A stretch of 6,274 nt of DNA from a virus (IMGVR_UViG_2703718849_000001:1-6274), one strand, 5' to 3'. Shown: positions 1-6,274, counted from the first letter of the stretch. Numbers and translations are program-made. The notes: generated from the letters alone by a model not told the origin.

Positions 1-97
1 ATGGTGTCCCCTGCAGACATCTACTTGAAGCGACAGGGGATTGATTGGAATGGTGTTTTTTAGATGTGAAAAATATTTTACCCGCTATTTTACCCAT
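1..97 (-). CDS. Possible 5' end of an integrase gene (N-terminal fragment running off the left edge)
   Basis: Minus-strand ATG at 97..95 opens a frame (MGKIAGKIFFTSKKHHSNQSPVASSRCLQGTP...) with no stop down to position 1. It overlaps the excisionase stop (92..90) by 8 nt, the usual xis-int arrangement. No clear Shine-Dalgarno; the integrase call is positional inference only. Confidence 0.3.
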   Translation of the reverse strand, partial: MGKIAGKIFFTSKKHHSNQSPVASSRCLQGTP

Positions 98-290
98 TGG
101 CGCGGCTTAAGAGCTTATTTTTGAATTCACAATGGTCACGATATAACCATCTTGCTCGCCCGTGGATAACTTTGGCTTTAGGCAGGTCTCCGGACTTAAT
201 CCGGTCATAGATGAAGGTTTTACCGAAGCCAGTATCGGCCATGATGAATTTCAAATCAACCAGGGAATCAGGCTGTAGTTCGTGTTGCAT
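90..290 (-). CDS. xis: AlpA-family excisionase / prophage DNA-binding regulator (66 aa)
   Basis: ATG at 290..288 with GGAG about 9 nt upstream, TAA at 92..90. The pattern ...LKFIMADTGFGKTFIYDRIKSGDLP...RWLYRD... fits the AlpA/Xis helix-turn-helix family signature as I recall it (TG-x5-IY ... LP ... W). Sits at the distal end of the leftward operon. Confidence 0.7.
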   Translation of the reverse strand: MQHELQPDSLVDLKFIMADTGFGKTFIYDRIKSGDLPKAKVIHGRARWLYRDHCEFKNKLLSRANG

Positions 291-330: not shown

Positions 331-358
331 GCAATAAAAAACCGCCATCAGGCGGCTT
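331..358 (-). terminator. Rho-independent terminator candidate (minus strand)
   Basis: Stem ccgcc (342-346) / ggcgg (351-355) with 4-nt loop, followed on the minus strand by UUUUUUAUU (plus 333-341). The TGA stop of the small ORF 348..515 lies in the loop. Confidence 0.45.
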
Positions 359-515
359 GGTGTTCTTTCAGTTCTTCAATTCGAATATTGGTTACGTCTG
401 CATGCGCTATCTGCGCCCATATCATCCAGTGGTTATAGCAGTCGTTGATGTCCTCTGCTTCGATAACTCTGTTGAATGGTTCTCCATTCCATTCACCTGT
501 GACTCGGAAGTGCAT
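348..515 (-). CDS. Small hypothetical protein (55 aa), below the ORF-track cutoff
   Basis: Hand translation gives MHFRVTGEWNGEPFNRVIEAEDINDCYNHWMIWAQIAHADVTNIRIEELKEHQAA. ATG at 515..513 is preceded by GGAG with 7-nt spacing; TGA at 350..348. It occupies the slot between lar and xis where Rac carries ydaC (order recalled, not checked). Confidence 0.55.
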   Translation of the reverse strand: MHFRVTGEWNGEPFNRVIEAEDINDCYNHWMIWAQIAHADVTNIRIEELKEHQAA

Positions 516-523
516 TTATCATC

Positions 524-553
524 TCCATAAAACAAAACTCGCCGTAGCGAGTT
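524..553 (-). terminator. Hairpin plus U-tract, terminator candidate (minus strand)
   Basis: Stem aactcgc (536-542) / gcgagtt (547-553), loop cgta; on the minus strand it is followed by UUGUUUUAU, immediately upstream of the SD of the 348..515 ORF. Confidence 0.35.
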
Positions 554-615
554 CAGATAAAAGAAATCCCCGCGAGTGCGAGGATTGTTATTCACCTTTG
601 ACGGCAAGTTGCAGG

Positions 616-918
616 TTAGCCATGGTTAACCTCCTGCGGAGTAGCCTTTACAAGCACTGGTGTAAATCCATCTTCATTAAGGTTATGAATATAGACTTCC
701 GTTCTCCTGCGCTCTTCAGCGTTTAATATGGTTTCTGGATCATAAACCCATACTTTCATTCGACTATTCCATGAAGAAATCGCTTCAGATTTAGTTCGTT
801 TTTCTGGTCCTTGGGCACCACATTTGCATGACACATAGCGCATTTTCCCTCTGATACTGAATGAGTATCCGATGTTAAGCACAGTGGAACCACAGAATGG
901 GCAGCGATATAGATTCAT
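616..918 (-). CDS. lar: Lar-family restriction-alleviation protein (zinc ribbon), 100 aa
   Basis: ATG at 918..916 with AAGGTGG about 8 nt upstream, overlapping the upstream gene's TGA (ATGA). N-terminal CPFCG ... CKCGA two-CxxC motif and ISSWNSR match the Lar family as I recall it. Confidence 0.65.
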   Translation of the reverse strand: MNLYRCPFCGSTVLNIGYSFSIRGKMRYVSCKCGAQGPEKRTKSEAISSWNSRMKVWVYDPETILNAEERRRTEVYIHNLNEDGFTPVLVKATPQEVNHG

Positions 919-4740: not shown

Positions 4741-4765
4741 AAAACGCCTCAAGTGAAGCGTTATT
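4741..4765 (-). terminator. Hairpin plus U-tract, terminator candidate (minus strand) between ea10 and cIII
   Basis: Minus-strand RNA forms an 8-bp stem AACGCUUC / GAGGCGUU (one G-U wobble), loop ACUU, followed by UUCGUUAU. The plus-strand RNA would have a mismatch instead, so the structure is strand-specific. Confidence 0.35.
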
Positions 4766-4785
4766 GGTATGCGGTAAAGCCGCGC

Positions 4786-5154
4786 TCAGGCGGCTTTGAT
4801 AGTCATATCATCTGAATCAAATATTCCTGATGTATCGATATCGGTAATTCTTATTCCTTCACTACCATCCATTGGAGGCCATCCTTCCTGACCATTTCCA
4901 TCATCCCAGTCGAACTCACAAACAACACCATATGCATTTAAGTCTTTCGAAATTGCTATAAGCAGAGCATGTTGCGCCAGCATGATTAATACAGCATTTA
5001 ATACAGCGCCGTGTTTATTGAGTCGGTATTCAGAGTCTGACCAGAAATTATTAATCTGGTGAAGTTTTTCCTCTGTCATTACGTCATGGTCGATTTCAAT
5101 TTCTATTGATGCTTTCCAGTCGTAATCAATGATGTATTTTTTGATGTTTGACAT
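4786..5154 (-). CDS. ea10: Ea10-like early-left protein (122 aa)
   Basis: ATG at 5154..5152 with GAGGA SD at 9-nt spacing; 122 aa, the size and position of lambda Ea10 between ral and cIII. Sequence identity to Ea10 is recollection only. Confidence 0.6.
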   Translation of the reverse strand: MSNIKKYIIDYDWKASIEIEIDHDVMTEEKLHQINNFWSDSEYRLNKHGAVLNAVLIMLAQHALLIAISKDLNAYGVVCEFDWDDGNGQEGWPPMDGSEGIRITDIDTSGIFDSDDMTIKAA

Positions 5155-5171
5155 CTATTCATATCCTCATA

Positions 5172-5200
5172 GATAAAAAATCGCCCTCACACTGGAGGGC
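5172..5200 (-). terminator. Rho-independent terminator candidate (minus strand) upstream of ea10
   Basis: Minus-strand stem GCCCUC / GAGGGC (plus 5183-5188 / 5195-5200), 6-nt loop, followed by GAUUUUUUAUCU. The plus-strand downstream flank is A/G-rich, so it is orientation-specific. Confidence 0.5.
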
Positions 5201-5295
5201 AAAGAAGATTTCCAATAATCAGAACAAGTCGGCTCCTGTTTAGTTACGAGCGACATTGCTCCGTGTATTCACTCGTTGGAATGAATACACAGTGC

Positions 5296-5660: not shown

Positions 5661-5688
5661 CAAAAATAAAGGCCACCATCAGGCAGCC
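5661..5688 (-). terminator. Rho-independent terminator candidate (minus strand) immediately after ral
   Basis: Minus-strand RNA: GGCUGCC-UGAU-GGUGGCC (7 bp including two G-U wobbles) followed by UUUAUUUUUGG. The ral TGA (5681..5679) sits in the loop. The plus-strand RNA would have C-A mismatches. Confidence 0.5.
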
Positions 5689-5879
5689 TTGTTATTCTGT
5701 TTACCAAGTTCTCTGGCAATCATTGCCGTCGTTCGTATTGCCCATTTATCGACATATTTCCCATCTTCCATTACATGAAACATTTCTTCAGGCTTAACCA
5801 TGCATTCCGATTGCAGCTTGCATCCATTGCATCGCTTGAATTGTCCACACCATTGATTTGTATCAATAGTCGTAGTCAT
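5679..5879 (-). CDS. ral: Restriction-alleviation protein Ral (66 aa)
   Basis: MTTTIDTNQWCGQFKRCNGCKLQSECMVKPEEMFHVMEDGKYVDKWAIRTTAMIARELGKQNNKAA is near-identical to lambda Ral as I recall it, and of the same length. ATG at 5879..5877. Confidence 0.85.
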   Translation of the reverse strand: MTTTIDTNQWCGQFKRCNGCKLQSECMVKPEEMFHVMEDGKYVDKWAIRTTAMIARELGKQNNKAA

Positions 5880-5949
5880 ACGGATAGTCCTGGTATTGTT
5901 CCATCACATCCTGAGGATGCTCTTCGAACTCTTCAAATTCTTCTTCCAT
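5863..5949 (-). CDS. Orf28-like acidic peptide (28 aa) overlapping the ral start
   Basis: Hand translation gives MEEEFEEFEEHPQDVMEQYQDYPYDYDY. ATG at 5949..5947 with GAGGTGA upstream; TGA at 5865..5863, overlapping ral by 17 nt. This matches the lambda orf28/ral arrangement as I remember it. Confidence 0.35.
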   Translation of the reverse strand: MEEEFEEFEEHPQDVMEQYQDYPYDYDY

Positions 5950-5957
5950 ATCTCACC

Positions 5958-6274
5958 TCAAATAAGTGGTTTGCTGCCTAATTTCATTTTCTGGCGACCA
6001 ACACAAGTCACCCCCATTTCACTGCGTGGCTTGCTGTACCATGTGCGCTGATTCTTGCGCTCAATACGTTGCAGGTTGCTTTCAATCTGTTCGTGGTATT
6101 CAGCCAGCACTGTAAGGTCTATCGGATTCAGTGCGCTTTCTACTCGTGATTTCGGTTTGCGATTCAGCGAGAGAATAGGGCGGTTAACTGGTTTTGCGCT
6201 TACCCCAACCAACAGGGGATTTGCTGCTTTCCATTGAGCCTGTTTCTCTGCGCGACGTTCGCGGCGGCGTGTTT
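5958..6274 (-). CDS. N: Antitermination protein N (5' end truncated by the window edge; about 4 codons missing)
   Basis: The minus-strand frame is open from 6272 down to the stop at 5960..5958: TRRRERRAEKQAQWKAANPLLVGVSAKPVNRPILSLNRKPKSRVESALNPIDLTVLAEYHEQIESNLQRIERKNQRTWYSKP...PLI. The arginine-rich motif and most of the sequence match lambda N (MDAQTRRRERRAEKQAQWKAANPLL...); the C-terminal roughly 25 residues diverge. The track's TTG start at 6212 is an artefact. Confidence 0.9.
   Translation of the reverse strand, partial: TRRRERRAEKQAQWKAANPLLVGVSAKPVNRPILSLNRKPKSRVESALNPIDLTVLAEYHEQIESNLQRIERKNQRTWYSKPRSEMGVTCVGRQKMKLGSKPLI

Follow-up and report, generated by a model that had tools for sequence, protein, structure and literature searches.

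The intrinsic terminators of the lambda leftward early (pL) operon that are overridden by the antiterminator N presumably comprise tL2a, tL2b, and tL3, whose names and coordinates reportedly go back to work by Luk and Szybalski in 1982-83 and to the Lambda II map; to our knowledge, none of the tL sites named on experimental grounds corresponds to the hairpins at the ends of ral, orf55, and ea10, which concern us here. More generally, transcription-translation coupling is a textbook expectation in E. coli. In leader-peptide attenuators of the trp, pheL, and pyrBI type, a terminator hairpin contains or adjoins the end of an ORF, and translation can affect how that hairpin folds. The closest described counterparts of the hairpins discussed below come from the lambda exo-xis region, where the terminators t3, t4, and t5 have been predicted with ARNold (Bloch et al. 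2014, PMC4195576), and from phage HK140 (JQ086370), whose GenBank record annotates a rho-independent terminator after the lambdap35 homologue that overlaps the end of the coding sequence; neither source comments on a stop codon lying in the loop. The influence of a ribosome on a terminator close behind it has been addressed in E. coli with an engineered reporter series that places lambda tR2 at varying distances from a stop codon: the translating ribosome represses a terminator a few bases from the stop almost entirely, and terminator efficiency rises with distance (Li et al. 2016, NAR, PMC4824070). Short spacing between stop and terminator is, as summarized in PMC7858274, typical where polymerase outruns ribosomes, e.g., in Bacillus subtilis (Johnson et al. 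2020). Short conserved sequences between unrelated modules of lambdoid genomes have, in turn, been conceived as boundary or linker sequences, a concept that we take as it is cited in PMC3029335.

The stretch analyzed here, henceforth the window, comprises 6,274 nucleotides of viral DNA (IMGVR_UViG_2703718849_000001:1-6274) and represents the leftward early operon of a lambdoid prophage. All substantial ORFs lie on the minus strand, in the order N, ral, an ea10-like gene, erf-type recombination genes, a Lar-like gene, orf55, and an excisionase-like gene of the AlpA/HTH type (Table 1). The DNA is a mosaic of modules that also occur variously in Sf6, HK633, HK022, Stx phages, and lambda, and the best single record covers no more than ~75% of it. 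A lambda-type N gene lies upstream of the hairpins on the same strand, which places them in an N-controlled operon of the same type as that of lambda, and operon expression should, by established lambda biology, depend on N antitermination, with nutL and pL beyond the right end of the window. Terminator-like sites number 12 in the window, against 6.3 +/- 2.5 in shuffles; a search of the whole window against Rfam at gathering thresholds gave no match to a known RNA family.

Table 1. Features of the window, in the direction of leftward transcription (hairpins as RNA, 5' arm-loop-3' arm)
Feature	Position	Strand	Details
Lambda-type N antiterminator gene, 3' part	5958..6274, runs off right end	minus	translation (5958..6212 and beyond) matches lambda N C-terminal region; relatives annotated 'antitermination protein N'
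ral, 66 aa, ends NNKAA*	5679..5879, stop TGA 5681..5679	minus	Pfam PF11058 Ral, E = 7.5e-48
T_ral, predicted terminator hairpin	5669..5690	minus	AAGGCUGCC-UGAU-GGUGGCCUU then UAUUUUUGG; folded 46-nt segment -16.8 kcal/mol, z = -3.0
Conventional predicted terminator upstream of ea10-like gene	5181..5202	minus	counterpart of lambda hairpin 33931-33952
ea10-like ORF, 122 aa, ends TIKAA*	4786..5154, stop TGA 4788..4786	minus	PHROG 646, E = 8e-70; 97.5% identical to lambda Ea10
ea10 hairpin	4776..4797	minus	AAAGCCGC-CUGAGC-GCGGCUUU; 6-nt loop holds TGA; folded 48-nt segment -13.7 kcal/mol, z = -3.0; found by repeat search
Conventional predicted terminator	4743..4762	minus	z = -4.95; 13 nt after ea10 hairpin; counterpart of lambda hairpin 33493-33512
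Lar-like ORF	616..918	minus	
T_C, predicted terminator hairpin	565..586	minus	AAUCCUCGC-ACUC-GCGGGGAUU then UCUUUUAUC; -17.5 kcal/mol for folded segment, z = -5.5
T_B, predicted terminator hairpin	535..554	minus	GAACUCGC-UACG-GCGAGUUU then UGUUUUAUGG; z = -3.5; abuts orf55 Shine-Dalgarno
orf55, lambdap35 homologue, 55 aa, ends HQAA*	348..515, stop TGA 350..348	minus	PHROG 676, E = 2e-39; 96% identical to lambda NP_597778
T_A, predicted intrinsic terminator hairpin	339..358	minus	AAGCCGCC-UGAU-GGCGGUUU then UUUAUUGCC; -13.0 kcal/mol, z = -2.8
T_A U-tract	331..338	minus	UUUAUUGC on RNA; relatedness to other phages stops here
Excisionase-like ORF, AlpA/HTH-type	90..290	minus	PHROG 66 'excisionase and transcriptional regulator', E = 2.7e-8; weak Pfam HTH_17 match; next gene after T_A

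Terminator status is throughout a prediction that draws on hairpin anatomy, folding compared with shuffles, the ARNold calls in PMC4195576, and the HK140 annotation. T_A, T_ral, T_B, T_C, and the ea10 hairpin all have the stem of an intrinsic terminator (at least 5 bp, a loop of 3 to 8 nt, and a fold better than that of composition-matched shuffles), and the first four also carry at least 5 U in the 8 nt directly 3' of the stem. In T_A, the 5' arm is formed by the last orf55 codons, CAA GCC GCC, and the stop codon TGA occupies loop positions 1 to 3; in T_ral, the arm corresponds to the ral codons AAG GCU GCC, the TGA supplies the first three loop bases, and the hairpin itself accounts for ~-14 of the -16.8 kcal/mol computed for the folded segment. 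The first-pass annotation had placed both stop codons in the 4-nt loop of a terminator-like hairpin, and both placements are borne out, with a U-run after the stem in each case.

The two conventional predicted terminators on either side of the ea10-like gene have positional and sequence counterparts in lambda, which we take to be tL2a (33931-33952) and tL2b (33493-33512). The lambda hairpin at ~31262 is presumably tL3, and T_A was considered as its equivalent. This identification was rejected, as that hairpin corresponds to t1-lambda of Bloch et al. (31265-31287), located just after exo and far upstream of orf55. Instead, T_A matches lambda t5 in the hairpin and in the 5' flank as printed, T_C is the same as t3 in the hairpin, and T_B differs from t4 by a single stem base (G in lambda and A in the window, which turns a U-G pair into U-A) (PMC4195576). 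The T_A core is identical to the lambda sequence at ~29110-29128, the tail of its U-run reading UUUAUUGCC in the window and UUUCUUGCG in lambda. Gene order and strand also agree with those of the lambda exo-xis region and of HK140, whereas the gene following the hairpin is xis in lambda and the AlpA-type excisionase in the window. The hairpins are thus real, ordinary, and largely known: their lambda counterparts were predicted earlier, and the principle of masking by the ribosome is published. The placement of the stop codon in the loop, its conservation in the orf55 family, and the behavior of the hairpins at module junctions were not found stated in the literature searched and are descriptive additions.

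We propose that these hairpins are probably ordinary Rho-independent terminators of a lambda-type, N-antiterminated pL operon, in which the end of the gene and the terminator constitute one inherited unit. In orf55, ral, and the ea10-like gene, all of them small genes, the final Ala-Ala codons (GCY GCC) make up the top of the 5' arm, with the stop codon in the loop. The hairpins would stop polymerase not modified by N, rendering the downstream genes (the excisionase-like gene, in the case of orf55) N-dependent; in the ordinary course of lytic expression, they should be overridden by N. Going by established biophysics, such a hairpin would fold only when no ribosome sits on the last ~5 codons or the stop, and termination would then affect only those polymerases that are neither modified by N nor closely trailed by a ribosome.

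The region upstream of orf55 is more heavily provided with predicted terminators than had been supposed. A single insulating hairpin had been described there at 524-553; it exists, at 554..535 (T_B), and a second one at 586..565 (T_C), starting 29 nt past the stop of the Lar-like ORF, had been missed. The ATG of orf55 is preceded at 7 nt by GGAG. The accompanying statement that the arrangement lies immediately before xis stands insofar as an excisionase-like ORF follows T_A, but its product is of the AlpA/HTH type and not lambda Xis. The idea that orf55 is an insulated cassette guarding xis is weakened by the relatives, in which the downstream genes vary and are often not excisionases.

A third hairpin of this kind, at the end of the ea10-like gene, means that three genes within 6.3 kb terminate in Ala-Ala-stop inside a hairpin loop. 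This one lacks a proper U-tract, the stem being followed by UUUACC (UUUACCGC), and a diverged member of the orf55 family, locus L183, similarly has a hairpin with no T-run; hence, such a hairpin can be retained without forming a canonical terminator. These conserved-looking stems raise the alternative that the hairpins, instead of terminating transcription, mainly block 3' exonucleases or mark processing sites along the long pL transcript, and intra-operon terminators of unknown role have indeed been noted for P22-like phages (PMC8022706). We consider this distinctly unlikely, in that a canonical U-run immediately follows the stem in each of T_A, T_ral, T_B, and T_C, and a U-run is needed for termination and not for blocking an exonuclease. 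The homologues of Ea10 were of no help here, as their identities are either at least 95% or ~34% and offer no useful gradient of divergence.

The resemblance between T_A and T_ral is best treated separately from the hairpins themselves. The window contains two exact copies of the 9-mer CCATCAGGC (345-353 and 5676-5684) and no more. Taken alone, this 9-mer is not significant: when up to one mismatch is tolerated, the count is 4, compared with an expectation of 1.4, and 11 of 200 shuffles reach it. It is composed of the last Ala codon GCC, the TGA, the loop T, and two bases forced by C-G complementarity (GCC TGA T GG), and once a tetraloop with C-G closing pairs holds a TGA, no more than ~4 of the nine nucleotides are independent. 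A shared plus-strand core had been noted, and it is present in both hairpins, but as evidence it is weak: it is mostly the same solution in terms of codon and loop, and lambda ral has CTATCAGGC in its place. Chance, which is rejected for the hairpins by the shuffles and the conservation, is largely sufficient for the bare 9-mer. On our preferred reading, its recurrence would reflect the same design solution, in which the Ala codon GCC is followed by TGA and T and the loop is closed by C-G pairs. Some relatedness of the two copies is possible, since the hairpin type recurs in these phages: the form AGGCTGCC-TRAN-GGYGGCCTTT stands at the end of ral, of an ORF that occupies the ral slot without being related to ral, of orf55-like genes, and of ~8 other unrelated ORFs ending in (K/E/Q)AA*. 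Homology of T_ral with the orf55-family hairpins was considered on account of L183 (CAAGGCTGCCTGATGGCGGCC, against CAAGGCTGCCTGATGGTGGCC in ral); it is suggestive and inseparable from convergence, given a huge collection and constrained stems. Singleton matches to the pattern among the 2.9 million contigs may likewise be convergent, with tens expected by chance for 18 fixed bases as an order-of-magnitude estimate, and in 20 of the 120 matches the stop in the loop does not close an ORF having a start codon. Stops also overlap the loop outside this pattern. Among 161 terminator contexts assigned to an ORF, 31 carry the pattern hairpins that fetched the loci, 5 distinct non-pattern hairpins have a stop overlapping the loop, a further 10 contexts have the stop in the 5' arm, and 20 have it 0 to 4 nt upstream, all as orders of magnitude only, the automatic nearest-ORF classification being rough because alternative-frame ORFs compete.

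The arrangement at the end of orf55 is retained with considerable fidelity. Across 80 close orf55 loci, the core CCGCC-TGAT-GGCGG and the T-run are nearly invariant, with the 5-bp core in 77 and a 4-bp core in 3 GAC variants, and the penultimate codon varies between Ala, Thr, Ser, and Asp. A more diverged set of homologues, with ~50% identity to the orf55 product of the window, comprises those of the Flyfo siphovirus Tbat2_3, of 'phage 15b', and of 14 IMG/VR loci with 65 to 74% identity to the 15b protein; the Flyfo homologue, used in turn as a query against viral contigs, gave no matches. Almost all of these diverged homologues have a stop codon beginning in the loop of a GC hairpin, with a T-run next to it. 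The stems differ (GGCUGCC/GGCGGCC, GCCGCC/GGCGG, GGUCGC/GCGGCC, and others), the loops range from 3 to 7 nt, and all three stop codons are used. The exceptions in the family are L183 and a Morganella phage homologue that has a C-terminal extension and no hairpin. Over the 97 loci, there are 18 distinct hairpins, in which an arm pairs with its own partner at 6.6 of 7 positions, against 3.3 for swapped arms. This constitutes real evidence that the fused unit of gene end and hairpin has been maintained by selection on RNA structure. Once the 5' arm is coding, however, the layout is hard to leave, and the covariation alone is thus no proof of selection for a stop in the loop.

The picture at ral is different. 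Of 80 ral loci, 79 could be classified into two alleles: the strong hairpin of the window (39 of 79) and, in about half, the weak one of lambda, GGCCACTATCAGGCAGCTTT, which is mismatched at two positions and has a folding energy of -6 kcal/mol; in a few copies, TAA or TGG takes the place of TGA. In P22, Ral ends in KAI* and its hairpin has decayed to -3.5 kcal/mol. The ral hairpin is therefore dispensable in many phages. Comparison with relatives, which the first-pass annotation had named as a check on its proposal, accordingly gives a divided answer: the orf55 layout is kept down to ~50% protein identity, but the ral hairpin is degenerate in lambda, P22, and about half of the 80 relatives.

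Both hairpins coincide with places where otherwise related genomes part company. Past the T-run of T_A, the downstream DNA of the 80 orf55 loci is of at least 5 unrelated kinds: one with lambda xis, one with the AlpA-type gene seen in the window, and three others. In P22, where the upstream sequence differs, T_A is present at 100% identity along with 45 nt of a dead orf55 3' remnant, and no ORF reads into it. T_ral is followed by several different modules in the 80 ral loci and can have an unrelated ORF upstream: in some phages, the ral slot is taken by an ORF of 83 to 105 aa fused to the NKAA codons and a T_ral-type terminator, homology to the window resuming 4 nt before the hairpin and continuing downstream, such that two unrelated proteins share NKAA codons and terminator. 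T_A and T_ral each fit the description of the same short sequence bordered by unrelated flanks in different phages, and by this comparison they are landmarks at mosaic junctions, whose neighbors appear to have been swapped while the hairpin was kept. In this respect, they are comparable to the lambdoid boundary sequences, insofar as that concept is conveyed by its citation in PMC3029335, with the difference that the conserved patch in the window looks like a working terminator and takes in the final codons and the stop of the gene before it. One might suppose that short, similar GC-rich terminators are kept chiefly as homology patches for lambdoid module exchange, the stop in the loop allowing any upstream ORF to join in frame. 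Consistent with this, the mosaic junctions either coincide with the T-run or lie among the final 4 codons, the same hairpin form is common to ral, the ral-slot ORF, orf55-like genes, and the other ORFs mentioned above, and the boundary-sequence idea itself has been published. We nevertheless regard it as an unlikely main cause, because random recombination, followed by selection that preserves whole genes and terminators, may simply account for the junctions, and because of the potentially convergent singletons and the pattern matches that close no ORF with a start codon. What is documented, under our preferred reading, is that terminators fused with the ends of genes punctuate the early operons of lambda-type phages, and that such units have been kept over ~50% protein divergence and mark the joints of mosaic gene exchange.

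The overlap of stop codon and hairpin also bears on whether translation could control these terminators. The ribosome masking reported in PMC4824070 means that a coupling of this kind is physically expected. In both that reporter series and the window, a ribosome at the stop would reach the hairpin with its footprint, and termination is predicted to drop when the leading ribosome follows closely; the spacings considered from that series are of a few bp (5 bp in construct W28p), whereas the stops in the window are closer still, inside the loop, and its hairpins are natural ones with N present. In species with 'runaway transcription,' as summarized in PMC7858274, terminators abut or overlap stop codons as they do in the window, whose host, in contrast, is E. 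coli and whose operon is antiterminated.

A purposeful regulator could be built on this basis, with the stop selected to lie in the loop such that read-through into the downstream genes would hinge on whether orf55, ral, or ea10 is translated (translated leading to read-through, and untranslated to termination), in the manner of a leader-ORF-like switch acting on non-N polymerases. Since the stop is inside the hairpin, a terminating ribosome must melt the stem; experiments have shown masking of lambda tR2 at a distance of a few bp from a stop (PMC4824070); and the position of the stop in the loop is constant in the orf55 family despite changes in stem, loop length, and stop codon. Against such a role, P22 retains T_A without an ORF reading into it, which implies that translation coupling is not needed for retention of this hairpin. 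T_C and T_B start at least 29 nt past the preceding stop and should already halt unmodified polymerase before orf55, which limits the regulatory part that orf55 translation could play at T_A, while N-modified polymerase should ignore the hairpins altogether. The layout could moreover persist by inertia on account of the coding 5' arm, and orf55, ral, and ea10 encode conserved proteins rather than leader peptides (PMC8614690). We therefore hold a purposeful regulator to be rather doubtful.

Comparison with the attenuators leads in the same direction. The ORF ends are within reach of the ribosome at the hairpin, with the stops in the loops, but no alternative antiterminator pairing was predicted in MFE and centroid folds of ~143 nt, in which the hairpins stand alone; there is no mutually exclusive antiterminator, no short leader ORF with sensing codons, and no regulatory codon run, the ORFs encoding conserved proteins of 55 to 122 aa. 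A classical attenuator is ruled out by the missing alternative pairing and by the reality of the proteins (Ral PF11058, PHROG 676, and PHROG 646). With the hairpins taken as ordinary terminators, gating by translation is physically likely to occur at them and would be a side effect rather than a demonstrated control device. If the overlap were functional, expression of excision and other delayed-early genes from polymerases without N would hinge on translation of the small upstream ORF, adding an extra layer of safety for the stability of the prophage.

The Ala-Ala C-terminus shared by the three proteins has a wider distribution of its own. Among the 71 annotated lambda proteins, 8 end in Ala-Ala (0.7 expected), namely, B, Orf55, Bet, Ea10, Ral, NinB, NinC, and NinG; four of these have GCN GCA TGA, with the TGA overlapping the next ATG, and three are the hairpin cases. 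In two regions of MG1655 totaling 100 kb, such an ending is found in 1 of 97 proteins. Related phage contigs amounting to 1.15 Mb contain 1431 ORFs, of which 76 have it, against ~11 at internal offsets, and only 15 of the 76 are accompanied by a hairpin.

The over-representation of Ala-Ala in lambda generally, with a hairpin in only 3 of the 8 cases, implies that this ending may have a cause unrelated to hairpins. The C-terminal Ala-Ala could itself be selected, either as an ssrA-like ClpXP degron, an idea that derives from what is known of the ssrA tag, or for its termination context, and GCY GCC followed by a stop would then seed a GC stem, leaving the hairpin as a by-product. The counts from lambda, MG1655, and the related contigs favor this idea. 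Against it stands P22, where Ral has the KAI end and the hairpin has decayed. In the orf55 family, the hairpin persists where Ala-Ala has been lost (..VAN*, ..VVH*, and ..QVA*), and the penultimate residue varies between A, T, S, and D among close relatives. A protein-level cause for the hairpins hence seems highly improbable. A very speculative and, in our estimation, improbable extension would combine several of the above elements: the Ala-Ala-stop-in-loop hairpin might be a portable 3' cassette of temperate enterobacterial phages that supplies the last codons, stop, and terminator to any ORF joined upstream, thereby easing in-frame replacement, makes termination conditional on there being no trailing ribosome, and confers on many phage proteins an ssrA-like Ala-Ala C-terminus that might tune their turnover. 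The roughly ten-fold excess of Ala-Ala C-termini in lambda proteins may in any case merit a separate study.

C-terminal Ala-Ala is in strong excess in lambda, where, across the whole genome (NC_001416), it ends 8 of 71 proteins against 0.7 expected; the corresponding count in two regions of MG1655, 100 kb together, is 1 of 97 proteins. Among ORFs of the related IMG/VR contigs, 76 of 1431 have this ending, versus about 11 at internal offsets. Hairpins accompany only part of these Ala-Ala endings; other cases are of the form GCN GCA TGA and overlap the next ATG. The ends of this kind in the window are collected in the table, together with that of erf. A third hairpin in which the stop after an Ala-Ala codon pair lies in the loop was observed where the ea10-like gene ends. 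It is without a U-run, a conventional terminator begins 13 nt further on, and its counterpart in lambda is weaker.

Gene ends and hairpins in the window and in related phages (window coordinates unless an accession is given)
Feature	Position	Remarks
Ala-Ala end of orf55	348	minus strand
Ala-Ala end of ea10-like ORF	4786	minus strand
Ala-Ala end of ral	5679	minus strand
End of erf	3577	C-terminus GAAA
Stop-in-loop hairpin, ea10-like gene	4776-4797 (-)	
Conventional terminator after it	4762..4743	
T_C	565-586	
P22 T_A + orf55 remnant	AB362338.2 501-564	between eaG and eaC; equivalent to window 332-395
ral-replacing ORF, 83-105 aa	equivalent to window 5679-5950	end ...LLDTCNIYNKAA
Small genes adjoining diverged orf55 (L166, L180, L183, L184)		example hairpins aaggctgcTTAGgcggcctt, aggctgcATAACgcggcct, aggccgcATAgcggtct

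In some phages (L274, L295, L300, and others from IMG/VR), an unrelated ORF stands in place of ral; what this ORF has in common with ral-bearing phages is limited to its four final codons, the terminator and the DNA beyond it. Among the ral loci compared (L085-L164), those with N directly upstream of ral, as in the window, comprise 24 strong (window-type), 2 intermediate, and 1 weak (lambda-type) hairpin alleles (n=27); where the lambda sieB region lies between N and ral, the allele is weak in 10 of 11. This association of hairpin allele with neighbor may reflect linkage by descent. In the N-to-ral interval of the window (region 5669-5957), no terminator-like site was found other than T_ral, the predicted hairpin with the ral stop in its loop, which would thus be the first predicted intrinsic terminator after N.

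Small genes adjacent to diverged orf55 loci also have their stop codon within, or right at, the loop of a comparable hairpin, and some of their products likewise have ..KAA or ..QAA C-termini. Predicted terminators 0-4 nt from stop codons are common in the relatives' contigs. At the equivalent of T_C, the predicted terminator upstream of orf55, a different upstream ORF stops 1 nt before the hairpin in several relatives (L006, L024, L028, L038, etc.); the distance from the end of the Lar-like ORF in the window is 29 nt.

Orf55 itself (window 348-515) has no function assigned in PHROGs; a structural model of the lambda protein suggests, speculatively, a small alpha/beta protein resembling the RNA polymerase inhibitor T7 Gp2 (PMC8614690). 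In P22, T_A, the predicted terminator at the orf55 stop, persists together with 45 untranslated nt left over from the 3' end of orf55, and a partial orf55 has also been mentioned for 933W (PMC8614690).
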